Origin: Alphaproteobacteria bacterium
GTDB lineage: Bacteria > Pseudomonadota > Alphaproteobacteria > UBA828
Length of the DNA: 64,000 nucleotides
Direction of reading: 5' to 3'
NCBI GenBank assembly: GCA_965221125.1
Contig: CBDCRW010000007.1
Location: forward strand, 736,001 to 800,000
The position numbers and the translations under genes were made by a program. Of this stretch, positions 53,573 through 64,000 are shown piece after piece; positions within the stretch are counted from its first letter, which is position 1, and every line of letters begins with the position of its first letter. Below the pieces are notes generated by a model. That model was not told the origin of the DNA. It ran no database searches and saw nothing but the letters and a program-made list of their open reading frames with translations.

Positions 53573-54438
53573 AGCGAGCGCCTGAAGATCTTGCCGGTGA
53601 TGCCCTGGGGCAGCAGCCTGAGCATGACCACGGCGACGATGAGCAGGCCGACCCCGCCGAGCACCGGCGTGAACTCGTAGCTGAGAAGCTGGCGCACGGT
53701 GCCGAAGACGCCGGAGGCGACCAGCGTGCCGGTCACGGCGCCGGTGCCGCCGGTGATGACGGTGATGAAGGTCTGCGCGACGTAGGCCGCGCCGGCGGTC
53801 GGGATGACCTGCGAGATCGGCGCCAGCAGGCCGCCCGCCAGCCCCGTCAGTCCCGCGCCGATCGCGAACGTCACCATGTAGACACGCTGCGTGCTGATGC
53901 CGAGCACTGAGGCCTGGGCCGGGTTCTGCATGGTGCCCCGCGCGATGAGGCCGAGCTTGGTGCGCGTCAGCACCAGGAAGACCCCGATGAACAGCAAGAT
54001 CACGATGCCGATGAGCACCATGCGATACTGGGCGACGTTGTAGACGCCGACCTCGAAGCTCCCCATCGGCGCGGACACGCCTTCGATGATGTTGCCGAAG
54101 ATCGCGGTGACGATGCCGATGAGCAACAGGCTGAGCCCCCACGTGGCGATCAGCGTGTCGATCATGCGGCCGTAGAAGAAGCGGATGAAGGCGCGTTCCA
54201 CGACGATGCCGATGATTCCGACGACGATCGGGGAGATAATCAGCATCGAAATCCAGATGTTGATGCCGAGCGTCTTGGTGCACACCACGGTGGTGTAGGC
54301 GCCCAGCATCATGAACTCGCCGTGGGCGAAATTGATCACCCGCATCATGCCGAAGATGATCGCCAGCCCGGCGCAGGCGAGCGCCAGGCTGGCAATCCCG
54401 TTCAGCACTTCGATGATCAGGAGCGCAGCGGTATCCAC
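53569..54438 (-). CDS. ABC transporter permease (UrtB/LivH-like)
   Basis: GLAIIFGMMRVINFAHGEF, LIATWG, PQG. Confidence 0.9.
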   Translation of the reverse strand: MDTAALLIIEVLNGIASLALACAGLAIIFGMMRVINFAHGEFMMLGAYTTVVCTKTLGINIWISMLIISPIVVGIIGIVVERAFIRFFYGRMIDTLIATWGLSLLLIGIVTAIFGNIIEGVSAPMGSFEVGVYNVAQYRMVLIGIVILLFIGVFLVLTRTKLGLIARGTMQNPAQASVLGISTQRVYMVTFAIGAGLTGLAGGLLAPISQVIPTAGAAYVAQTFITVITGGTGAVTGTLVASGVFGTVRQLLSYEFTPVLGGVGLLIVAVVMLRLLPQGITGKIFRRSL

Positions 54439-54495
54439 GGCGCGCCCGTCGTCAAGCGTGCTATCGCACTCGTTACGCTGCGACCGTCAGAACGC

Positions 54496-55743
54496 CTAGA
54501 TGATCGGCTCCAGATGAGCGTTCATGTCGGGATCCTTGGTCAGGTCGCAGCGGTCGATCACGTCGCTCGGATAGAGCTGCGAGTAGCTCTCGAAGATGTT
54601 CCAGGTCTGGTTCTGGCACTCGGCCATGTGCATGTCCTGGATGACGTGATTGGTGACCGGGTCGACCACCATGTGCCCGGCCGGGCCGTCCCAGGCGATA
54701 TCGCCGCTGCGCAGCGCTTCGATCACCGCCTCGCGCTCGTGGCTGCCGGCGGCCTTGACGCCGAGCGACCAGAGCATGGTACCGAGGTAGCCGCCGATGC
54801 CCACCGAGTTGAGGTACTGGGCGTCGTCGCCGAAGCGTTCCTGATAGCGCTTGACGAACTCGACGTTGGCCGGCAGCTGCAGCTCCTGGAAGTAGGGCTG
54901 GGCGCTGACGATTCCGTTGCCTTCCTCCGCGCTGAGCTGGACGTGCTCGTTGCCGACGCCGAAGGTCACCGAGACGATCGGGATCTCGTTGAGCATGCCC
55001 GCCGCGTACCACTGACGGTAGAAGCCGGTGTGCGCCGCGCCCACGAGACAGGTGGAGAGCCAGTCGGGCTTCGCTTCCTGAATCTTGGCGATGGCCGGGC
55101 CGAACTCCGCCACGTCGAGGGGGAAGAAGTCCTTGGTGATGACTTCCGAGCCTTGTTCCTTGGCGAAGACCTCGGTCCACTTGCCGATGATCTGGGGCGC
55201 GTTGTAGTCGGCGCCGATGTAGTAGCAGCGCTTGCCGTGGGTCTTGAAGCCGTAGTCGGCCATGGGCTTCACCCACTGCACGGCGGTGACGCCGCTGACG
55301 AAGTTGTTGATGTCGCAGACGCCGCCCTCGTAGATCACGCTGTACCACAGCAGCGTCTGGAAGCGCCGGAGAATCGGCCGAATGACCTCGCGCGACGCGC
55401 TGGTGATGGCGCCGTGCACCAGGTCGACACGCTCCTTGAGCGCAGCTTCCTGGGCGTACTGCGCGTAGAGCTCCATGTTGGACTGCGGGTCGTACTTGAT
55501 CAGCCGTATCTTCTTGCCGAGCAGGCCGCCGGCCGCGTTGATCTCCTCGACCGCGAGCTCGCAGGTCTGGGTCATCGGCGTGCCGTAGATATCGAGGCCG
55601 CCGGACTGGTCGAAGATGCTGGCGATGACGATCTCGTCGTCGTCGGCATAGGCCTTGGGCGATGCCGCGAGGCCTGCCGCCACCAGCGTTGCGGCGGTGC
55701 CCGCCGTGCCCTTGAGAAAACCTCTGCGAGTGCTGTCGAACAT
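54496..55743 (-). CDS. Amide/urea-type ABC substrate-binding protein (AmiC/UrtA-like), Tat signal
   Basis: TRRGFLK Tat motif, INAAGGLLG, YDPQSN, ITSASREVIRP, YEGG. Confidence 0.88.
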   Translation of the reverse strand: MFDSTRRGFLKGTAGTAATLVAAGLAASPKAYADDDEIVIASIFDQSGGLDIYGTPMTQTCELAVEEINAAGGLLGKKIRLIKYDPQSNMELYAQYAQEAALKERVDLVHGAITSASREVIRPILRRFQTLLWYSVIYEGGVCDINNFVSGVTAVQWVKPMADYGFKTHGKRCYYIGADYNAPQIIGKWTEVFAKEQGSEVITKDFFPLDVAEFGPAIAKIQEAKPDWLSTCLVGAAHTGFYRQWYAAGMLNEIPIVSVTFGVGNEHVQLSAEEGNGIVSAQPYFQELQLPANVEFVKRYQERFGDDAQYLNSVGIGGYLGTMLWSLGVKAAGSHEREAVIEALRSGDIAWDGPAGHMVVDPVTNHVIQDMHMAECQNQTWNIFESYSQLYPSDVIDRCDLTKDPDMNAHLEPII

Positions 55744-55796
55744 GGGTTCAAGCCCCTCCCTGGGTTGATCGAATGCGCGCCGCCGCGCCCGGCTGA

Positions 55797-55825
55797 AGGT
55801 TAGGCGCACGGCGCCGCATGCGCAA
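55797..55825 (-). promoter_or_regulatory. Candidate sigma70 promoter of the ABC operon
   Basis: Minus strand TTGCGC-17 nt-TAACCT, about 55 nt upstream of the SBP start. Confidence 0.45.
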
Positions 55826-55843
55826 CGGGTCGGCGCCCGCGTT

Positions 55844-57016
55844 TCAGCCGGCGAAGCCGAGGATGCGCTCGACGAAGGAACGGAGGATCAGCGCCGCATC
55901 CACCATCTCCGTGATCGGCACGAACTCGTTGGCGGCGTGGCTCACGGCGCCGTCTCCGGGGCCGAAATTGACGATCTCGATGCCGTCCCGCGCGAAGAAG
56001 CGGCCGTCGCTCGCGGCGAGCGCGTTGAGCACCGCCGGCGGTCTGCCGAGGCGCTCCTCGATGGCCGCAGCCAACGCCGAGACGTGGGGGCCGTCGAGAG
56101 GCGCGGAAAAACCGTCGGTGCCGACCAGCCGGCGCACGCTGCAGGACCCCGCAGGCTCGCCGGCGCCTGCCAGCACGGCCTCCATCTCGGCCACCGCCGC
56201 GCCGACGGGCTCATCGGGCAGCAGGCGTCGGTCGATACAGGCGGTGCAGCGGTCCGGCACCACGTTGGGGTTCTCGCCGCCGTGAAGGGTGCCGATGTTC
56301 ATGGTCGAGATTTTTTGGCCGCTCCGCCGTGCGGCGAGTCTCGGCTCGAGCTCGCTCTGTAGCCTCTCCAGCAGTCGCATCATGCGGAGAATGGCGTTGT
56401 CGCCCGCCGGCGGATCGCCGCCGTGGGCGGCGCGGCCGGTGGTCTCGATCTCCAGCCAAAGGATGCCGCGCTCCTCGACGATGAGATGGTTCTCGGTGGG
56501 CGCGCCGAGCACCAGGGCATCGGGCTCGATCAGCCCTTCCTCGCGGAGGTAGGCGGTGCCCTCCGAACCCAGGCGCTCCTCGTCGCCCGCGAGCACGAAG
56601 ACCACGCTTCCCAGCCTGGGCCCTCCGCGCCGCGCAATCTCGCTGGCGAGCCAGAGGTGCACCGCAGCCGAGCCCTTGCAGTTGTTGGCGCCGAGCCCGT
56701 AGATGCGGCCCTTCTCCATGGTCGCGGCGAAGGGGTCGGTGCGCCAGGCTGCGCGGTCGCCGGTGCCGACCGTGTCGATATGGGAATTGAACACGATGCA
56801 GGGCGAGCCCTCGCCTAGCCGGGCGACGAGGTTGGCGATCGGCGGGGTCCGCATCGGCATGGAGACCGCGTAGCCAGTGGCTCTGAAGTGTTGGCCTGCG
56901 GCCTCGCAGATCGTCCTGGTGTCTCCCGGCGGCGTGGTGGACGGGATCGCGATCAGTTCGGCAAGGAGCGCGTGCAGCGATTCGGCGATGGACTGTTCGC
57001 TGTCCGTCACGGTCAC
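55844..57016 (-). CDS. M20 family metallopeptidase/deacylase (ArgE/DapE-like) with atypical metal ligands
   Basis: NSHIDTV, GDEE, GRAAHG, NVVPDRC, SDGRF, FGPG, SHAANE; GTGA overlap with the upstream gene. Confidence 0.85.
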   Translation of the reverse strand: MTVTDSEQSIAESLHALLAELIAIPSTTPPGDTRTICEAAGQHFRATGYAVSMPMRTPPIANLVARLGEGSPCIVFNSHIDTVGTGDRAAWRTDPFAATMEKGRIYGLGANNCKGSAAVHLWLASEIARRGGPRLGSVVFVLAGDEERLGSEGTAYLREEGLIEPDALVLGAPTENHLIVEERGILWLEIETTGRAAHGGDPPAGDNAILRMMRLLERLQSELEPRLAARRSGQKISTMNIGTLHGGENPNVVPDRCTACIDRRLLPDEPVGAAVAEMEAVLAGAGEPAGSCSVRRLVGTDGFSAPLDGPHVSALAAAIEERLGRPPAVLNALAASDGRFFARDGIEIVNFGPGDGAVSHAANEFVPITEMVDAALILRSFVERILGFAG

Positions 57017-57906
57017 GCGTCTTTGTCGGTTCGGATGATCGACGTGGCGCTGAGCGAGCGCGGATCGCGGGTCTGCCAGCGGCCGTTCTCGACCTGGGCG
57101 AAGAAGTCCGCACAGGCCTGATTGAAGGCGTCCGGCTCCTCCAGGTTGATCGTGTGGCCCGACTTGGGGATCACCAGCAGACCAGATGTGGGGATCGTGC
57201 GCTTGAGATAGAGGTTCGCGTCGAGGCAGGGCTCGTCCTCGTCGCCGGTGATCAGCAGGGTCGGCACGCTGAGCGCAGCGAGGTCCTCCTCGAGATCGTA
57301 GAGCGACGGGCGGCGGGACTGCACGCCGCGCAGGGTATTGGCCGTGCCCTTGGCCGAGTGCTCCACGAGCCGGTCGCGGAACGTCGACCACCCGCGCGGG
57401 TCCTTGGTTTGAAACTGCACCCGTGTGGGGCCGAGCGCGTAGTCGGCGCCGACCGGGCCTGCGCCCTCGCGCTCCAGGCGGTCGGCCACCGCGTGCGTCT
57501 CGCGCTGGAAGCCGTCGCGTGCGTGCTTCGGTGCGCCGTAACCACAACCGGCGACCACCAGCGCCGAGGCGCGTGCCGGATGCGTAAGGCCGATGTGGAT
57601 GGTCGCAAAGCCGCCCATACTCAAGCCCACGATGTGAGCACGCTCGATGGACAAGTGATCGAGCACCGCGATGGCGTCCGCCACCGCGTGGGCCTGGCTG
57701 TAGCTGTCGGCGTCTTCCGGCACGTCCGACGGTGGATAGCCGCGGGCATTGTAGGCGATGCAGCGGTAGCGCCGCGCAAAATGGCTAAGCTGGGGCTCCC
57801 AGCTCAGGTGGTCGCCCGCGAACTCATGAATGAAGAGCACCGGATGGCCTGACCCGACCTCCTCGTAGTAGAGCTTCGTCCCGTCCGGCGATGGCGCGTA
57901 GGGCAT
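57013..57906 (-). CDS. Alpha/beta hydrolase
   Basis: IHEFAGD, ARGYPPS, GLSMGG, GDED, SGHT; GGAGG RBS favours start 57906. Confidence 0.88.
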   Translation of the reverse strand: MPYAPSPDGTKLYYEEVGSGHPVLFIHEFAGDHLSWEPQLSHFARRYRCIAYNARGYPPSDVPEDADSYSQAHAVADAIAVLDHLSIERAHIVGLSMGGFATIHIGLTHPARASALVVAGCGYGAPKHARDGFQRETHAVADRLEREGAGPVGADYALGPTRVQFQTKDPRGWSTFRDRLVEHSAKGTANTLRGVQSRRPSLYDLEEDLAALSVPTLLITGDEDEPCLDANLYLKRTIPTSGLLVIPKSGHTINLEEPDAFNQACADFFAQVENGRWQTRDPRSLSATSIIRTDKDA

Positions 57907-57941
57907 GGCTGCCATTCCTCCCGCGCGCACCATAGATAGCG

Positions 57942-57981
57942 GCGTGCCGGCACGCGAGTCCCCGATTCATGGTATAATCGG
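57942..57981 (+). promoter_or_regulatory. Extended -10 promoter with two inverted repeats in the divergent intergenic region
   Basis: TGgTATAAT at 57970-57978; CCGATT-8 nt-AATCGG at 57962-57981; perfect palindrome GCGTGCCGGCACGC at 57942-57955. Confidence 0.6.
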
Positions 57982-58014
57982 TTGTTTTCGGAGTGACTAA
58001 GCGGGACGGCGCGC

Positions 58015-58950
58015 ATGTGCGGAATAGCGGGCGTGATGTTCAAGCACGGTGAAACGGGTCTGTCGGCGGGCCGGGCGCTGATCGACATGCTGGACGGGTG
58101 CCAGCACCGGGGCCCGGATTCGACCGGCTTTGCGCTCTACGAAGATACCGATCCGGGTCAGCTTCGGTTGCGCTTCCTGGTCGAGGAGGAGGAAGGCGCC
58201 GGCGGCGTCGGCCACAACAGCGCCGAGAGCGCGATTGTGGACATCCGCAAGACACTCGAGGAGCACGGCGCGGGAATCGTCGACAGCGAGCGGGTCGGCA
58301 ACAGCTACCGGGTGGTGGTCCGCTTCTCGGGCGACGTGCAGAAGCTCACCTACGACATGGAGCACGCGGCGACACTGATCTCGATCGGCGAGAGCCTGGA
58401 CATCCGCAAGGACGTGGGCGGCGCTCACGACGTGGACGAGGTCTTCCACGTGGGCGAGGTTGCGGGCACTCACGGGCTCGGTCATGTCCGCCTGGCGACC
58501 GAGTCCGAGGTGAAGCCCGAGGCGGCGCATCCTTTCTGGGCGACCGGCTTTACCGACATCGCGATCGTGCATAACGGCCAGATCACCAACTACTGGAAGA
58601 TGCGCCGCCGCCTCGAGCGCCGCGGCTTCGCGTTCCACACGGACAACGATAGCGAACTGATCGCAGTCTATCTGGCGGACAAGCTCGCCAACGAGGTACC
58701 CCTGGAGGACGCGCTGAAGACCTCGATCGACGACCTCGACGGCACGTTCTCGTTCCTGGTCTCGACCAAGGATGAGATCGGCTACGCCAAGGATCACCTC
58801 GCGGCCAAGCCGATGATCATGTACGAGAACGACGACCTGATCGCGATCGCCTCGGAGGAGGTCTCGTTGAACCGTCTCTTCCCGGGCCGCGCGCTCGACA
58901 CGCGGGAACCGCCGCCGGGGAGCTATGGCACATGGTCCAGATTGACCTAG
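58015..58950 (+). CDS. Class II (Ntn) glutamine amidotransferase, MgsA/GlxB-like
   Basis: MCGIAG N-terminal Cys, HRGPDS, HVRLATES, AHPF, HNGQITN, DNDSE. Confidence 0.88.
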   Translation: MCGIAGVMFKHGETGLSAGRALIDMLDGCQHRGPDSTGFALYEDTDPGQLRLRFLVEEEEGAGGVGHNSAESAIVDIRKTLEEHGAGIVDSERVGNSYRVVVRFSGDVQKLTYDMEHAATLISIGESLDIRKDVGGAHDVDEVFHVGEVAGTHGLGHVRLATESEVKPEAAHPFWATGFTDIAIVHNGQITNYWKMRRRLERRGFAFHTDNDSELIAVYLADKLANEVPLEDALKTSIDDLDGTFSFLVSTKDEIGYAKDHLAAKPMIMYENDDLIAIASEEVSLNRLFPGRALDTREPPPGSYGTWSRLT

Positions 58951-60890
58951 GACAGGTTTCGGTCCGCGCCGCCAACGAGCAAATCCGGGATTGGGGAGAG
59001 AAGGGCGAGGACGTCGAGGTCCTCAACCCCGACGCGCGTCATCATATCGGCGTCGGCCTGATTCATCCCGTGCGCGTGCACATCCGGGGGTCTGCGGGCT
59101 ACTTCTGCGCCGGCCTTGCCGACCAGGCGCGCTTCGAGATCGACAACAACGTGGGCTGGGGCCTCGGCGACAACATGTATGCCGGCACGGTGACGGTGCG
59201 CGGCAACGCGGGTGCGATCGCGGGCGTCGCAATCCGGGGCGCGGAGATCGTGGTGCACGGCAACGTGGGCTCACGCGCGGGCCAGGTCATGAAGGCGGGC
59301 ACGCTCTGCTGCGTCGGCAACGCCAACTTCATGGCGGGCTACATGATGTACGGCGGGCGGATCATCATCCTGGGCGAGTCCGGCGAGCGCGTGGGCGAGG
59401 ACATGGCGGCCGGCAACATCTACGTCGGCGGCGCGGTGCGCTCGCTCGGCTCCGACGCCGAGCTCACCGACATGGACGAGGCGGAGGCCGACGATATCCG
59501 CGCGTTCCTGGATCGTCACGAGATCGCCTACAAGGGCGGCTTCCAGAAAATCGTGAACGCGGGCAAGCGGCTGCGCTACGCGACCAGCGAGCAGCAGGTC
59601 CGCAGCATCCCCTTCTTCACCTTCTCCGGCACGTCGGACTACTGGAACCCGAAGGTGCAGGAGGACGTCTATATCAAGTCGCAGATCGGCCGGTACCGGG
59701 TGCGGGGCTATGGCGGCGCGCGCACGCTGCCGCACCTCTCGGACCTCGCTTTCAAGCGCGATCTCTCGAGCGCCGGCACGGCAGGCGATCCGGTGGCGGC
59801 CGTCGAGATGCGGACGGAGATCGGCGGGTTGAACGGGGCGAAGCCGCTCAAGCTCTCCATGCCGGTGATGATCGCGCCGATGAGCTACGGCGCGCTCTCG
59901 CGCTCCACCAAGCAGGCGGTGGGGATGGCGTCCAGCATGGCGGGGATCGCCGAGAACACCGGCGAGGGCGGCATGAGCGACGCCCAGCGGGGCGCGGCGG
60001 AGCAGCTGGTCTTCCAGTGCCTGGGCGGCCGGCTCGGCTGGAACATCCACGACATGAACCGGGCCGACGGGTTGGAGATCTACATCAGCCAGGGCGCGAA
60101 GCCGGGCTTCGGCGGCCAGCTCATGGCCAAGAAGGTCACCAAGGAGCTCGCGACCATCCGGGGCATTCCGGAGGGCATCGACCTGCGCTCCCCCTCGCGC
60201 CACCCGGACATCCTGGGCGCCGACGATCTGGTCATCAAGGTGGAGGAGTTCCGCGAGGCGACGGGCTACCGCATCCCGGTGAGCGTGAAGCTCGGCGCGG
60301 GCCGAGTAAGGGACGACATCAAGATCGCCTACAAGGACGGCTTCGACTTCGTCGAGCTGGACGGGATGCAGGGCTCCACCGGCGCAGGCGGCGCGGAGGT
60401 GATGGAGCACGTGGGCGTGCCCACCCTTGCCGCCATCACCCAGGCCATCGAGGCGCTGGAAGAGGTGGAAGGCCTCGGCAAGATGCAGCTCGTGCTGATG
60501 GGCGGCATCCGGGACGGGATCGACGCGGTGAAGGGCCTCTGCCTCGGCGCCGATGCGGTGGCGATGGGGACGGCGGTCATCATCGCCGGCGGCTGCATCG
60601 CCTGCATGCAGTGCCACGTGGGCCAGTGCGTGACCGGGATCGCGACGCAGGACCCCACGCACGAGCGCCGCTACAACCCGGTGGCGGAGGCCCGCAACAT
60701 CCACCGCTACCTGGAGGGCGTGCGCTGGCAGATGGCGGCGCTGACCCAGGCGATGGGCTACGGCAGCACCACCGATCTTAGCCGGGACGACCTGGTGGCC
60801 GTGACCCGCGACGCGGCGGAGATGACGGGTCTTCCCTACGCGCCGGAGTACCGCGAGCGCGAGCAGGCGCTCCGCCGCAGGATGGGCTGA
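58932..60890 (+). CDS. Fused GXGXG domain + FMN/Fe-S glutamate-synthase domain (MgsB-MgsC / GlxC-GlxD-like)
   Basis: N-terminal Gly-rich beta-helix repeats, then MSYGALS, NTGEGG, QGAKPG, LRSPSRH, VKL, GGIR, CIACMQCHVGQC..GIATQD. Confidence 0.88.
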   Translation: MVQIDLGQVSVRAANEQIRDWGEKGEDVEVLNPDARHHIGVGLIHPVRVHIRGSAGYFCAGLADQARFEIDNNVGWGLGDNMYAGTVTVRGNAGAIAGVAIRGAEIVVHGNVGSRAGQVMKAGTLCCVGNANFMAGYMMYGGRIIILGESGERVGEDMAAGNIYVGGAVRSLGSDAELTDMDEAEADDIRAFLDRHEIAYKGGFQKIVNAGKRLRYATSEQQVRSIPFFTFSGTSDYWNPKVQEDVYIKSQIGRYRVRGYGGARTLPHLSDLAFKRDLSSAGTAGDPVAAVEMRTEIGGLNGAKPLKLSMPVMIAPMSYGALSRSTKQAVGMASSMAGIAENTGEGGMSDAQRGAAEQLVFQCLGGRLGWNIHDMNRADGLEIYISQGAKPGFGGQLMAKKVTKELATIRGIPEGIDLRSPSRHPDILGADDLVIKVEEFREATGYRIPVSVKLGAGRVRDDIKIAYKDGFDFVELDGMQGSTGAGGAEVMEHVGVPTLAAITQAIEALEEVEGLGKMQLVLMGGIRDGIDAVKGLCLGADAVAMGTAVIIAGGCIACMQCHVGQCVTGIATQDPTHERRYNPVAEARNIHRYLEGVRWQMAALTQAMGYGSTTDLSRDDLVAVTRDAAEMTGLPYAPEYREREQALRRRMG

Positions 60891-60893
60891 GCC

Positions 60894-63413
60894 ATGGCGA
60901 TCCTGGAGGAGATGAAGGCCGGTGGGAACCTGCTCGCCGAGCTGCCTGACGACACGGAGGACGCGCACTTCGTGCCGGCTCCGTGCCAGATCGCCTGCCC
61001 GGTGGGGACGGATGCACCCTCCTACATCGCCTACATCTGGGAGCGGAAGTTCGAGGAGGCGTTCGAGGCGATCACGGCGACCAACCCGTTCAGCTCGATC
61101 TGCGGACGGGTGTGCGATGCGCCGTGCGAGCCCGCGTGCCGGCGCACGGATTCCGACGGCCCGGTGCAGATACGCAACCTCAAGCGCTTCGTCATGGACG
61201 AGGTGGGGCACGACTACGATCCGCCCCCGGTGCCGATCCGCCACGAGCAGAGCGTGGCTGTGGTGGGCTCCGGGCCTGCGGGCTTGACGGCGGCGCACGA
61301 GCTTTCGGTCGCGGGCTACAAGGTGCACGTCTACGAGATGACCGACCGCCTGGGCGGCATGATGATCTGGGGCATTCCGGCGTTCCGGCTGCCGCCCGGG
61401 ATCATCCAGGAGGATATCGACCGCATGACGCGGCGTTGCCCCGGCATGGAGGTGCACCTCAACACCGCGCTCGGGCGCGACGTGACGCTCGACGATCTCA
61501 AGGCGCGGCACGATGCCGTGATCCTCGCCATCGGCGCGTGGTGGGGCAAGAAGATGGGCATACCGGGCGAGGACGACACGCGCGTGATTGACGGCGTGCA
61601 ATTCCTCCGTGACGTGAACGAGGGCGCCCGGCCCGAGATGCCGGAGACGGTCGTGGTCGTGGGCGGCGGCGACGTGGCGATGGACGCCTGCCGCGTCGCG
61701 AAGCGCCTGCCCGGCTGCAAGCATGTGAAGGTGATCTACCGGCGCGGACCGGCGGAGATCCCCGCGCGCAAGATCGAGCTGGAAGGCGCGATCGAAGAGG
61801 GGATCGAGTTCGTCTACCACACGCAGCAGACCGCCATCGTGCCGCAGGGCAACGAGCTTGCCGTGCGCTGCGTGCAGACGACGCTGGGCGACCCGGACGA
61901 ATCCGGCCGGCGCGCGCCGGTGAACGTGCCGGGCACGGAGCACGACATCGCCTGCGGCATGATTATCGCTTCGGTGGGGCAGGAGGGTCTCTGCGAAGAC
62001 CTGAAGCAGCGGGGGATGATGCTGTCGGACCGCGTGCGGACCGCGTGGGACGACATGCGCACGAGCGATCCCAAGGTGTTCGCGGCCGGCGACGGGGCTT
62101 TCGGCGGGTCCACCATCGTCATGGCGATGAACCACGGCCAGCGGGTCGCCTACTACGTGAAGGCGTTCCTCGAGGGCCGCGCTGATCCGCTGCCCTACCG
62201 CACGCCGCACCGCACTCGGCGCGTGCCGGTGGCGCAGGACCTGGATTGGGAGCTGCTTCCGGTTCAGCACCCCGACTTCCTCGGCCTCGGCGACGATCCG
62301 GTGTCTTTCCCGGAGATCGAGACCACGTATGGCTGGGAGGCGGCGCGCAAGGAGGCGGCGCGGTGCTTCCGCTGCGACGCGGAGACCGGCTCGGCCGACT
62401 ACGCGGTGGGGCACCGCGAGGACATCTTCGTGATGGCCCGCACGGCGCCGGGGGATACCGCGGGCCAGCAGGCGATGCTGGAGAAGCGCCTGGGCGAGCG
62501 GGACGATCCCTTCCCGGACGAGCTTTCGGGCGTGCTGGACGATCTCGCCTTCCTGCCGGCGAACCTGTCGCGGCTGGTGATCGACCCCTACCGAGAGGCC
62601 TGCCGCATCGGCACCACGGTGGGCGGCACCGATCTCGCGCTGCCCTTCATGGTGACGGGATTCGACGATGCGCCGGTGGAAGTCCGCGCTGCGGTCGGGC
62701 GCGGCGTTGCGGAGGCGGACGCGAGCTACCTGGGAATGCAGCCCTTGGGCGACGGCGCGCGCTGGTTCCAGCTCGTGGTGCCGGGGCAGATTGCACCGAG
62801 CGCGGACGCGGCCGGGCTGATCCACGCCCTCGGCCACCGCTTCACGCCCGTCGAGGCGACCGCCGCGGCGGAGGGTCAGGTGCTCGGGCTTTCGGTTTCC
62901 TCGCCGGCGGTCCTGGAAGAAGCGATCCCCCATGCGCTCGACGCGGGCTTCGACATGCTGCTGCTGGATGGCAGCGCCGGCCTGGGCGCGCCCTGGGCCG
63001 AGCTGAGAGGCGCGCCCGATCTCACGATCCTGCGCGATGCCGTGGCGATCCTGCGGCGCCTCGACCGGGAGGAGGAGATCGACCTCGTCTACTTCGGCGG
63101 CGTGCGCTCGGGCACCGATGCGGCGAAGGTGATTGCACTCGGCACCGTCGCCGTGGTGCTGGGGGTGGCCGTGGGGCTTGCCGCCGGCGGCGCGATCACC
63201 GGCGCCCACGAGCTTGTGTTCTCGGCAGACCGCAGCGACGAGGACCGTACGGCAGGCACCGTCAACATCCTCAAGGCGACCGCCTCCGAGGCCTCGATGA
63301 TGGCGCGCTGCACCGGCAAGACCAACCTGCAGAACGTCGAGCCCGAAGACCTCCGCGCGCTCACCGTCGCGACCGCCACCGCAACCGGCATTCCTCTCGC
63401 AGGAACGCGGTAG
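60894..63413 (+). CDS. GltD/SudA-like Fe-S flavoprotein fused to a degenerate glutamate-synthase FMN barrel
   Basis: CQIACP, CGRVC..PCE.AC, GSGPAG, GIPAFRLP, GGGDVAMD, YRR, FAAGD, EAARCFRC; then LDDLAFLPANLSR..PYRE.C and FGGVRSGTDAAK.IALG. Confidence 0.85.
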   Translation: MAILEEMKAGGNLLAELPDDTEDAHFVPAPCQIACPVGTDAPSYIAYIWERKFEEAFEAITATNPFSSICGRVCDAPCEPACRRTDSDGPVQIRNLKRFVMDEVGHDYDPPPVPIRHEQSVAVVGSGPAGLTAAHELSVAGYKVHVYEMTDRLGGMMIWGIPAFRLPPGIIQEDIDRMTRRCPGMEVHLNTALGRDVTLDDLKARHDAVILAIGAWWGKKMGIPGEDDTRVIDGVQFLRDVNEGARPEMPETVVVVGGGDVAMDACRVAKRLPGCKHVKVIYRRGPAEIPARKIELEGAIEEGIEFVYHTQQTAIVPQGNELAVRCVQTTLGDPDESGRRAPVNVPGTEHDIACGMIIASVGQEGLCEDLKQRGMMLSDRVRTAWDDMRTSDPKVFAAGDGAFGGSTIVMAMNHGQRVAYYVKAFLEGRADPLPYRTPHRTRRVPVAQDLDWELLPVQHPDFLGLGDDPVSFPEIETTYGWEAARKEAARCFRCDAETGSADYAVGHREDIFVMARTAPGDTAGQQAMLEKRLGERDDPFPDELSGVLDDLAFLPANLSRLVIDPYREACRIGTTVGGTDLALPFMVTGFDDAPVEVRAAVGRGVAEADASYLGMQPLGDGARWFQLVVPGQIAPSADAAGLIHALGHRFTPVEATAAAEGQVLGLSVSSPAVLEEAIPHALDAGFDMLLLDGSAGLGAPWAELRGAPDLTILRDAVAILRRLDREEEIDLVYFGGVRSGTDAAKVIALGTVAVVLGVAVGLAAGGAITGAHELVFSADRSDEDRTAGTVNILKATASEASMMARCTGKTNLQNVEPEDLRALTVATATATGIPLAGTR

Positions 63414-63465
63414 AAGCGCGATGTCGGGCTGCCGCAGCATCCCGCGAATGGCATAGACTGAGCGA

Positions 63466-64000
63466 ATGCGCGTTCACCTGAACTACGGCCGGGGACAACG
63501 GGCGGTCGATCTGCCTGACGATCTCGACGTCACGGTGATCGCCAAGCAGGCGATGCCGCTGCTCGCCGACCCGGCGCAGGCGATGGCCGACGCACTGGCC
63601 GAGCCCGTGGGCTGCCTGCCGCTGGCGGCGGAAGCGGCCCGTGCGAAGCGCGTTTGCATCCTCATCTGCGACTTCACGCGGCCGGTCCCCAACGGCGTGA
63701 TCCTGCCCCCGCTCATCCGCACCCTGCTTGGCGCGAGGCTCAAGCCGGAGCAAATCACCGTGCTGGTGGCGACCGGGCTGCACCGGCCCAACGAGGGCGG
63801 CGAGCTTGCCGCCCTGGTCGGCGATCCCTGGGTGCTGGAGACGGTGACCGTCGCCAACCACTTCGCCCGAGAGGACGCCGACCACTTGCTGGTGGGCACG
63901 ACCGGGCGTGGCACGGTGGTGCGTCTCGACCGACGCTTCATGGAGGCTGATCTCCGCATCGCGACCGGCCTGGTGGAGCCGCATTTCATGGCCGGCTGGT
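63466..64000 (+). CDS. larA: LarA family nickel-pincer-dependent racemase/epimerase, 3'-truncated by window edge
   Basis: Hand translation from ATG 63466: MRVHLNYG, ICDFTRPVPN, VATGLHRP, NH, TGLVEPHFMAGW. Confidence 0.88.
   Translation, partial: MRVHLNYGRGQRAVDLPDDLDVTVIAKQAMPLLADPAQAMADALAEPVGCLPLAAEAARAKRVCILICDFTRPVPNGVILPPLIRTLLGARLKPEQITVLVATGLHRPNEGGELAALVGDPWVLETVTVANHFAREDADHLLVGTTGRGTVVRLDRRFMEADLRIATGLVEPHFMAGW

Follow-up and report, generated by a model that had tools for sequence, protein, structure and literature searches.

The window analysed here is a 64,000-nucleotide (nt) stretch of the genome of an Alphaproteobacteria bacterium (GTDB lineage UBA828; assembly GCA_965221125.1, contig CBDCRW010000007.1, positions 736,001 to 800,000), and towards its right-hand end lie three forward-strand open reading frames (ORFs), called A, B, and C, whose products belong to the glutamate synthase family. 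Among multi-centre enzymes glutamate synthase is a textbook case; its relatives, the MgsABC (GlxBCD) proteins and the split forms of archaea, are poorly understood. The C-terminal part of C is a barrel of the same type as the catalytic barrel of B, and we refer to it as D. Judged by its sequence, D seems to be a pseudo-enzyme copy of a GlxD-type barrel. The three genes are tightly linked and run in one direction, A overlapping B by 19 nt and C starting 3 nt past B, with the following features (aa, amino acids; FMN, flavin mononucleotide; FAD, flavin adenine dinucleotide; Ntn, N-terminal nucleophile).

58015..58950, + strand: gene A, a stand-alone GlxB-type class-II (Ntn) amidotransferase of 311 aa with N-terminus MCGIAG (ORF and Pfam)
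58932..60890, + strand: gene B, a fusion of a GXGXG domain and an FMN barrel (GlxC-GlxD type), 652 aa (ORF and Pfam)
59034..59429, + strand: GXGXG beta-helix domain of B, aa 35-166 (Pfam PF01493, 1.6e-12)
59838..60761, + strand: catalytic Glu_synthase FMN barrel of B, aa 303-610, with NTGEGG, SQGAKPG, and RSPSRHPD (Pfam PF01645, 2.1e-88)
60594..60629, + strand: Cys motif of B, C555-x2-C558-x2-C561-x4-C566 (alignment to B. subtilis GltA)
60894..63413, + strand: gene C, a GltD/NfnB-like Fe-S flavoprotein joined to the degenerate barrel D, 839 aa (ORF, Pfam, and structure matches)
60978..61202, + strand: Fer4_20 helical Fe-S domain of C, aa 29-103, with invariant C31, C35, C70, C74, C78, and C82 (Pfam 5.3e-23; Cys compared in 45 sequences)
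61251..62138, + strand: FAD and NAD(P)H Rossmann domains of C, aa 120-415 (Pfam Pyr_redox_2, 3.7e-32)
62364..62375, + strand: invariant C491-x2-C494 at the end of the reductase module of C (45 sequences)
62376..62537, + strand: linker or arm of C, aa 495-548, of low confidence in isolated models and wrapping B in the complex model
62538..63410, + strand: degenerate GltS-type barrel D, aa 549-839 of C (phmmer, hhalign, fold, alignment, and tree)
63093..63128, + strand: phosphate loop of D, FGGVRSGTDAAK, aa 734-745, the FMN-phosphate loop in catalytic barrels, followed by ..ALG (alignments)

The G+C content of this region is 65-72%, and an antisense ORF of 1389 aa that runs across B and C (59271..63440, - strand) is the usual spurious frame of GC-rich DNA and was not considered to be a gene. 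A scan for sigma-70-like promoters found none and a terminator scan found no + strand site within the operon, both scans being uninformative for this organism. Searching window positions 54000-64000 against Rfam at E≤1 returned nothing except a chance snoRNA match (E 0.9), and in six related loci no match reached the gathering score.

A preliminary description of this locus, made from the sequence alone, had read A as a stand-alone Ntn amidotransferase, B as a GXGXG domain joined to an FMN barrel that is intact and has a Cys cluster, and C as a GltD-like FAD/Fe-S protein, in three tightly linked genes of one direction, and all the details that we checked were borne out. Gene A matches Pfam GATase_6 (6.5e-20) and GATase_7 (2.8e-18) and shares 40% identity with the GlxB-like gene that the genome carries on contig C2. 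Residues M1, C2, G3, R159, T162, H186, N187, G188, and D212 are invariant among 55 trio A proteins, so that the N-terminal Cys of a GlxB-type amidotransferase is present throughout; these are presumably the catalytic positions of Ntn amidotransferases.

The GXGXG domain of B also matches formylmethanofuran dehydrogenase subunit C. Its barrel can be aligned to the GltS large chains 7mfm_G, 1ea0, and 6s6s, and is 40% identical to the genome's own GlxD (contig C2); A and B are 40-42% identical to GlxB/GlxD-type proteins, compared with 33% to GltB. Among 40 sequences the GEGG and GAKPG positions are invariant, as are C555, C558, and C561, and C566 is conserved in at least 90%. Three of the four Cys align with the canonical residues of B. 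subtilis GltA, C558 being the additional fourth, and the motif is probably an Fe-S site. Because there are four Cys where canonical GltB has three, the cluster may well be [4Fe-4S] rather than [3Fe-4S].

The reductase part of C contains the Fer4_20, FAD, and NAD(P)H Rossmann folds of a beta-type subunit. Its eight invariant Cys (31, 35, 70, 74, 78, 82, 491, and 494 in 45 sequences) would suffice for two [4Fe-4S] clusters. The best structure matches to aa 1-495 are NfnA of NfnABC, StnC of StnABC, NfnB, and GltD, and the sequence matches in the PDB are 9bov_A (1.9e-87), 9n5u_A, 8oh5_C, NfnB 4ylf_B, and GltD 6s6s_G, with the GltD chains 6s6s_G and 2vdc_G matching at ~3e-60. A model of full-length C (pLDDT 83.4, pTM 0.59) has two confident halves and a low-confidence joint, with pLDDT below 50 at aa 495-508 and 557-562.

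That the C-terminus of C is a second GltS-type barrel had been claimed in the preliminary description, which named the lack of any Glu_synthase-like match or fold in this part as one of the points on which the claim would fall; both homology and fold were found. Pfam by itself is marginal, giving Glu_synthase at aa 681-764 (E 7e-4; 19.3 bits, cut-off 20.4) within a Glu_synthase/FMN_dh match that spans aa 681-768. For the other searches and the models we used aa 501-839 of C (P0124). A phmmer search of 1.84 billion cluster representatives gave 500 matches at E≤1e-3, 211 at ≤1e-10, and 66 at ≤1e-30. Many of these are fragments, and there are also C-like proteins of full length and stand-alone proteins of ~330-370 aa. 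Some of the last-named score better against the Glu_synthase Pfam model (P0178, for example, at 1.6e-14), and ordinary catalytic Glu_synthase proteins are also among the matches: P0209 (phmmer 7e-27; Pfam 3.7e-81), P0249, P0239, and P0257. Comparison of 47 D-type with 38 B barrels by hhalign gives a probability of 99.8% (E 1.2e-27) over 320 columns with 25% identity, and the match begins in the segment ahead of strand 1 and reaches the C-terminal tail.

The AlphaFold model of P0124, made from a 23-row alignment (pLDDT 84.1, pTM 0.78), is an eight-stranded FMN-type TIM barrel with the phosphate loop after strand 7 (FGGVRSGTD) and no helices between strands 2 and 5; pLDDT falls below 50 at aa 501-519, 532-539, 550-552, and 554-566. 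Foldseek matches it to FMN-dependent α-hydroxy-acid oxidases (E ~1e-10, TM ~0.5), and the best 50 PDB matches are α-hydroxy-acid oxidases only, with no GltS among them. A VIA-align comparison with 48,161 chains places flavocytochrome b2 first (Z 20.5, root-mean-square deviation (rmsd) 3.5, 244 aligned), followed by mandelate oxidase, type II isopentenyl diphosphate isomerase, and IMPDH; A. brasilense GltS 6s6s_A aligns with Z 17.7 (rmsd 3.9, 267 aligned).

The motifs of D were compared with those of the B barrel, eight GlxD/MgsC-type barrels, and stand-alone D proteins. Absent from D are NTGEGG, the ~65-residue loop-4 segment with the SQGAKPG and RSPSRHPD of B, the VKL-strand Lys found in all catalytic rows, and the Cys-rich loop. 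It still has a weakened DG..G, the N-terminal motif DDLAFLPANLSRLVIDPYREAC, the C-terminal motif ARCTGKT..EPEDLR..TGIPLAG, and the phosphate loop, in which G735, G740, and D742 are invariant among 45 full-length and 47 barrel sequences. The alignments thus agree with the earlier claims that D had kept its opening and phosphate loop and had lost the Cys cluster and the GEGG and GAKPG motifs. To speak of two FMN barrels, as that account did, overstates D, since the loop-4 segment, GEGG, the VKL Lys, and the Cys cluster are gone and the loop that it keeps lies in the modelled interface with B. The account was also right that the intact barrel has diverged where the degenerate one is conserved, and this extends to the C-terminal motif. 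Both terminal motifs (FDDLxFLP..YRExC and ARACGK..LEPEDL, as derived here from eight GlxD-type sequences and not a published definition) are present in GlxD/MgsC-type catalytic barrels and in D, and are gone from B, which is otherwise catalytic in its motifs and reads LSDLAFKRDLSS.. and LTQAMGYGSTTDLSRDDL at these places. Because D keeps the termini that B has lost, this looks like subfunctionalisation after duplication.

Purifying selection acts on D, but more loosely than on B. Pairwise dN/dS against six close relatives is 0.10-0.27 for D, 0.045-0.118 for the B barrel, and 0.063-0.133 for the reductase part, and protein identity over the loci is 50-95% for D and 71-98% for B. A D barrel is found at E≤1e-30 in 45 of the 49 genomes of the window's order, and in all 26 of those with at least 90% completeness and at most 5% contamination. 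This presence, together with the dN/dS values, argues that D is not a chance feature.

Natural fusions point to a pairing of D with B. In three proteins B and a complete C form one chain (P0129, 1486 aa; P0275, 1501 aa; and P0276, 1495 aa), and P0137 (1031 aa) and the fragment P0134 join B to D directly, with no reductase part; P0137 has no CxxC of the C491-x2-C494 type. Metagenome contigs were scanned with an alignment of stand-alone D proteins, and 442 of 597 stretches were confirmed, a figure that over-counts D-bearing loci because the pattern also matches ordinary MgsC-type barrels. Seventy-nine loci were classified: GltD is fused to D in 47, D stands right after a B-type barrel with no adjacent GltD in six, and an MgsC-type barrel occurs without D in 14; seven are cut by contig ends and five are unclear. 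The B-type barrels of five of the six GltD-less loci, all but L158, contain GEGG, GAKPG, and CxxCxxCxxxxC.

A tree of 45 barrel rows was built with IQ-TREE in a quick search, with SH-aLRT values as the only measure of support. One branch, with support 99, has the D rows on the same side. The rows of B, including that of a GltD-less locus, make up a clade (100), and the GltD-fused D rows form another (100) together with P0133, a 344 aa protein that is probably a fragment of a fused protein because it starts with the reductase CxxC motif. D falls outside all of the catalytic barrels, and as this may be a long-branch effect we draw only the conclusion that the D rows group together. P0209 (414 aa) branches between the catalytic and D barrels. 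It is a hybrid whose N-terminal motif is D-like (LADLTFLPANLSRLVIDSYREPC), in which GEGG and a 4-Cys loop are present and QGAKPG is degraded, and it may be an evolutionary intermediate.

A complex of B (652 aa, 40-row alignment) and P0124 (339 aa, 47 rows) was modelled. The ipSAE values are 0.88, 0.82, and 0.82 (median 0.82), and the best of three controls gave 0.00; 58 of 80 solved complexes pass the mark used, against 2 of 110 mismatched pairs, counts that are only rough here as the alignments were custom made. Partner pLDDT is at least 89, and at least 85% of the contacts agree between runs. The interface of ~300 contacts takes in nearly all of partner residues 1-67 (C aa 501-567, the arm and the DDL..YRE motif), together with 236-245 (the GG.R.G.D loop), 258-268, 287-306, and the C-terminal tail. 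Most of aa 501-547 participates (partner residues 1-5, 7-8, 10-12, 14-19, 22, 25-26, 28-42, 44, and 47), and in the phosphate loop it is residues 736, 738-741, and 745. On the side of B the contacts involve the pre-barrel segment 229-283 and, on the catalytic face, 385-394 (the QGAKPG loop), 419-423 (RSPSR), 479-504, 525-530 (GGIRDG), and 551-557 beside Cys555. The most conserved motif of D would be disordered in the isolated models because it forms part of this interface, and the place of the phosphate loop within it could explain the invariance of the loop without a ligand.

The model supports binding of D by B, short of showing it. The preliminary description had proposed a pairing of a catalytic with a degenerate barrel, which the natural fusions and the ipSAE of 0.82 against 0.00 for the best control now favour, and that the pairing brings the NAD(P)H module to the Fe-S and FMN site of B, for which the modelled contacts of residues 551-557 by Cys555 speak. 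As the reductase module ends at C494, right before the arm, its clusters would sit beside the Fe-S site of B.

A word-indexed protein search found at least 1012 proteins at E≤1e-3 among 8000 scored candidates, and most of the best 120 listed are ~840 aa long. Their names are generic: 'FAD-dependent oxidoreductase', 'glutamate synthase', or 'NADPH-dependent glutamate synthase beta subunit-like oxidoreductase'. When one genome of each species was scanned, 508 stretches matched the pattern and 477 of these were confirmed, with the same over-count from MgsC-type barrels as in the metagenome scan, and the locus counts given here refer to the best 80. All of them come from metagenome-assembled genomes (MAGs), of Alpha- and Gammaproteobacteria, Planctomycetota, Acidimicrobiia, and Opitutales. 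In 78 of the 80 there is a GltD part before D, 68 contain B, and 58 contain A, with the order A-B-C throughout; the missing parts fall at contig ends except at L022, where there is room upstream of B and yet no match to A, and at L047, where no A, B, or GltD part was found within 10 kb upstream. At L047 the D-type barrel lies in a 607-aa ORF (L047:9218-11041) whose N-terminal 270 aa have no Pfam match and are maybe an over-long ORF call in GC-rich DNA; its neighbours are an OpuAC-type ABC transporter, an M20 peptidase, and a gene resembling type III glutamine synthetase (GSIII; GS, glutamine synthetase). The trio architecture is a large, vertically conserved family, present on hundreds of contigs from MAGs and metagenomes, and not an oddity of one genome.

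The window's genome contains a single D-type gene. It also encodes canonical gltBD, a GlxB/GlxC/GlxD cluster, another set of glutamine amidotransferase (GAT), GXGXG, and FMN modules, and a Rieske-Glu_synthase fusion. The central domain of canonical GltB was found in 19 of 20 other carrier genomes, and the trio is therefore an accessory enzyme and not the sole glutamate synthase (GOGAT).

The sequencing runs that match the stretch are mainly labelled sponge metagenome. Contigs from four metatranscriptome libraries of three studies, taken at ≥90% likeness and giving no measure of expression levels, are 90-99% alike and cover parts of all three genes (17 to 29 of 30 bins over A, B, and C); most are 90-95% alike, hence from relatives, and they may derive from DNA. 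One of them, 734 nt long, spans the B/C junction (60510-61243).

The gene directly past C runs off the window.

63466..64000, + strand: LarA-like gene, 428 aa in the genome (Pfam Lar_N 5e-53, LarA_C 2.1e-15)

Its best NCBIfam score is 332.6 bits against a cut-off of 460, and it stays under every cut-off of the LarA family. The whole gene is L007:466-1752 (G000:C7:799466-800752), and the genome carries two LarA-like genes; no LarC nickel-insertion gene (PF01969) was found in this genome, which is 92% complete. On the same strand there follows a gene of the aldehyde:ferredoxin oxidoreductase (AOR; tungsten/molybdopterin) family at L007:1867-3702 (G000:C7:800867-802702; AFOR_N 2e-76, AFOR_C 3.2e-119). 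Divergent from the trio on its upstream side are genes for an α/β hydrolase, an ArgE/DapE-type M20 deacylase, and a Liv-type ABC transporter. Among the best 80 loci these neighbours recur in close relatives only (LarA-like 20, AOR 9, hydrolases 15 each).

Many relatives have a link to nitrogen metabolism. The gene directly past C, in 71 evaluable genome loci, is a ligase of the TIGR03105 class (type III glutamate-ammonia ligase) in 13, LarA-like in 19, and another gene in 39; the ligases score 652-671 bits, against a cut-off of 469.6. A TIGR03105-class ligase occurs anywhere in 21 of the 80 loci, an Amt-family transporter in 14, and either in 29. In the metagenomes a GS-like gene lies downstream of GltD-D at 27 of 39 evaluable loci (≤2.7 kb, same strand), and 22 of these 27 genes are at least 60% identical to the GSIII query. 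One GltD-less locus has Amt and a ligase passing TIGR03105 (558.8 bits) right after D. At the level of whole genomes a TIGR03105-class gene was found in 19 of 20 carriers and 1 of 14 controls, a comparison that is not phylogenetically controlled.

Other observations concern the neighbourhoods of the relatives and related genes elsewhere in the genome. At L034 (11070-12461), L055, and L061 the gene past C encodes a DAO-family oxidoreductase closest to TIGR03329 ('putative aminophosphonate oxidoreductase'; 523.9 bits, cut-off 632.8). In a Rhodospirillales MAG (L077:11124-15456) the trio is followed by an MgsA/MgsB/MgsC-like set and then by a type III GS, and the loop that carries four Cys in B and three in other GlxD-type barrels is free of Cys in the Mgs-like barrel. 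The window's genome has, on contigs C2, C4, C5, and C6, one TIGR03105-class GSIII and eight GS-like genes below the cut-off; the search gave ten further matches, three of them being pieces of two genes. There are four GltS-type barrels besides canonical GltB. A cluster on C2 contains GS-like, GlxB, GlxC, GlxD, and DAO genes, with GntR, amidase, and γ-glutamyltranspeptidase genes nearby, and the GS-like and GltS-type gene set as a whole suggests many amine pathways of the γ-glutamylation type. On C5 a Rieske [2Fe-2S] domain is N-terminal to a full Glu_synthase barrel in a 548 aa protein (L010:7748-9394, - strand; G000:C5, ~502747-504393), and two genes away is a ferric-reductase-like membrane protein with a Rieske domain of its own. 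This fusion is another unusual electron feed to a GltS-type barrel.

MgsABC (GlxBCD) and the trio agree in gene order and in three parts: the GlxB-type amidotransferase, the GXGXG module, and the GlxD-type barrel. In many relatives of the trio, though not in the window, a ligase of the type III GS/GmaS family is the next gene. According to the available excerpts of one report, the operon in M. extorquens DM4 is mgsABC-gmaS, GmaS is placed in the conserved family 'glutamine synthetase, type III', the pair of γ-glutamylmethylamide synthetase and N-methylglutamate synthase (GMAS/NMGS) is presented as a counterpart of GS/GOGAT, and the redox cofactors of the synthase are described as unknown (PMC6237917). 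Excerpts of another equate SAR11 glxBCD and glnT with a putative N-methylglutamate synthase and γ-glutamylmethylamide synthetase (PMC3160333). The trio differs from MgsABC in having GXGXG and barrel in one chain, where the excerpts describe three Mgs subunits (PMC6237917). It differs further in having a GltD/NfnB-like NAD(P)H Fe-S flavoprotein of its own and the extra degenerate barrel D, with the terminal GlxD motifs on D and lost from B, and its 4-Cys motif in B is invariant whereas the Mgs-like barrel of L077 is Cys-free there.

With GltBD (Azospirillum 6s6s and B. subtilis 7mfm) the trio shares the catalytic modules, namely the Ntn amidotransferase, the FMN barrel with Fe-S, GXGXG, and a beta-type subunit, and presumably the electron path and chemistry. 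However, the trio has three chains, GXGXG before rather than after the barrel, a degenerate barrel on the beta-like subunit, and four Cys instead of three, and it co-exists with canonical GltB in 19 of 20 genomes. It scores far below the equivalog cut-offs for GltB and GltD (NF008730, 141.7 against 1047; TIGR01317, 205 against 447.7; TIGR01316, 275.6 against 471.75). No Pfam match to Glu_syn_central (PF04898) was found in the trio at E≤0.1. A relation of D to the GltB central domain was considered and rejected, as hhalign against a 19-sequence profile gave a probability of 0.5% (E 0.11; the B barrel, E 0.52), so that any equivalence between the two is one of analogy only.

In dihydropyrimidine dehydrogenase (DPD; 1gt8/1h7x), as in C, an FMN-type TIM barrel comes after an N-terminal GltD-like module (helical Fe-S domain, FAD, NADPH), and DPD is the only solved architecture that aligns over both halves. 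The rmsd is ~20 Å, and only domain content is thus shared, the orientation not being comparable. The DPD barrel is like that of dihydroorotate dehydrogenase, is catalytic, and is followed by a 2x[4Fe-4S] domain, whereas D appears to be GltS-derived with its catalytic loops stripped; Pfam finds no ferredoxin domain after D. NfnA and StnC (9n5u, 9bov, 8oh5) are the closest solved relatives of the reductase module (fold E 1e-42, sequence 1.9e-87) up to its C-terminal CxxC, but unlike C these chains have a formate-dehydrogenase-like C-terminal domain and act in bifurcating complexes with other partners. We found no paper on the GltD-barrel fusion or on the trio in literature whose coverage misses most subscription journals, and this is weak evidence of absence; to that extent the earlier statement that no characterised enzyme of this architecture was known to its author agrees with what we found.

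The trio thus represents a real, very widespread, and uncharacterised architecture rather than a system new in kind. Pfam and SCOP describe the central domain of canonical GltB as a rudimentary FMN-type barrel, and if this description holds a pair of catalytic and rudimentary barrels is not new in principle. Here, though, the rudimentary barrel is a separate and recognisable GlxD-type copy, matching B at E 1.2e-27 and the central domain at E 0.11, and is carried on the reductase chain.

On balance we lean towards A, B, and C forming one NAD(P)H-dependent enzyme of the glutamate synthase family, assembled from GlxB-, GlxC-, and GlxD-type parts with its own reductase, and with D as a docking piece. 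In such an enzyme the N-terminal Cys2 of A would hydrolyse a γ-glutamyl amide to release ammonia or an alkylamine, which would pass to B and condense with 2-oxoglutarate, the imine being reduced by the FMNH2 of B. Electrons would travel from NAD(P)H to the FAD of C, through its two [4Fe-4S] clusters, and on to the 4-Cys cluster of B. D and the arm would clamp onto the catalytic, Fe-S face of B and so keep the reductase module within electron-transfer range. A reductive amination that draws its amine from a γ-glutamyl amide, as put forward in the preliminary description, is plausible, and the linkage to type III GS/GmaS-family ligases in the relatives supports it. Such GOGAT-like reductive amine transfer is favoured because the operon A-B-C-GSIII is a look-alike of mgsABC-gmaS with a built-in NAD(P)H reductase. 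As the donor we tentatively put first γ-glutamylmethylamide or a similar alkylamide supplied by a ligase of the type III GS/GmaS family, with N-alkylglutamate and glutamate as products; glutamine, giving two glutamates, is a possible donor that ranks a close second, and another amide comes last.

Several points weigh against this proposal. None of A, B, and C scores above any curated NCBIfam cut-off, and the cofactors, electron path, and reaction that we propose rest on knowledge of the family. In the window no GS-type ligase lies beside the trio, the genes after C being LarA-like and AOR-like, and the only TIGR03105-class gene of the genome is unlinked to the trio, on contig C5, where its neighbours (SDR, Ppx, Ppk, and cobalamin genes) are uninformative. 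Neither GSIII nor a LarA-like gene follows C at 39 of the 71 evaluable genome loci. The GltD-less variants keep the 4-Cys motif of B, and D is therefore not strictly tied to a fused reductase. The relative placement of the two halves of C is not fixed by its model (pTM 0.59), the complex model comprises B and D only, with A and the reductase module outside it, and complex models from custom alignments can pass through likeness to known folds. The RNA-library contigs, as said, come mostly from relatives and may be of DNA origin.

We consider it unlikely, though a serious alternative, that the trio is a second, split form of the ordinary NADPH-glutamate synthase in which D replaces the GltB central domain and which works as an ammonium module with type III GS and Amt. 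Every catalytic module of GOGAT is present with its motifs intact, the ligase linked to the trio is of the class that NCBIfam names 'type III glutamate--ammonia ligase' and Amt-family transporters are linked to it as well, and on the Pfam and SCOP description ordinary GltS already pairs a catalytic with a rudimentary barrel. However, canonical GltB is already present in 19 of 20 carriers and in the window's genome, where GltD lies beside it, A and B are nearer to GlxB/GlxD-type proteins (40-42%) than to GltB (33%), D shows no detectable relation to the central domain (probability 0.5%, E 0.11), and the scores lie far under the GltB and GltD equivalog cut-offs. The operon A-B-C-GSIII resembles mgsABC-gmaS, as excerpted, rather than gltBD. 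It is improbable that D instead binds FMN or another phosphorylated ligand as a second redox or catalytic site, with C acting as a self-contained reductase like DPD or the complex running a two-site reaction. This would fit the invariance of G735, G740, and D742 even in stand-alone D proteins of ~30% identity, the match of the D fold to FMN enzymes (Z 17-20), and the order of GltD-like module and FMN barrel in DPD, whose chains align over ~800-977 columns. But D lacks GEGG, the ~65-residue loop-4 segment, the VKL Lys, and the Cys cluster, its model has no helices between strands 2 and 5, it evolves ~2-fold faster than the B barrel, the modelled interface with B can account for the conserved loop without a ligand, and at an rmsd of ~20 Å the likeness to DPD is one of common domain content only. 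Very improbable is a role of C apart from A and B, as an NfnB/StnC-like bifurcating or transhydrogenase module whose linkage reflects co-regulation only: the best PDB matches of aa 1-500 are indeed NfnA of NfnABC and StnC of StnABC (34-36% identity), but the order A-B-C is kept wherever the contig reaches, bar L047 and L022, fusions of B with C exist, the interface of B and D is confidently modelled, and no NfnB/C- or StnA/B-like partner genes were found among the annotated neighbours.

A more specific form of the proposal of one reductase-equipped enzyme is speculative, and we think it rather unlikely as a whole: that the trio is a reductase-equipped N-methylglutamate synthase, an NAD(P)H-dependent γ-glutamyl-alkylamide:2-oxoglutarate aminotransferase that together with a GmaS-type ligase and Amt fixes methylamine or another small amine onto 2-oxoglutarate, its catalytic (B) and docking (D) copies having arisen by barrel duplication. 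The classical N-methylglutamate synthase is described as an FMN enzyme with redox-neutral chemistry that starts from glutamate. This would fit the Cys-free Mgs-like barrel of L077 as against the invariant 4-Cys motif and the reductase of the trio.

The family described here has a core of the GlxBCD type with its own NAD(P)H module and what seems to be a pseudo-enzyme barrel, and it offers a testable electron source for GlxD-type barrels. It would also be a clear case of barrel duplication followed by subfunctionalisation into catalytic and docking parts. The trio is a candidate accessory route of nitrogen or alkylamine assimilation in abundant uncultured marine and sponge-associated Alpha- and Gammaproteobacteria. 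Should it be only a second GOGAT, it would still represent an alternative assembly of that enzyme; should it be a γ-glutamyl-alkylamide:2-oxoglutarate aminotransferase, these bacteria would commonly possess a second, GS/GOGAT-like cycle for alkylamines.

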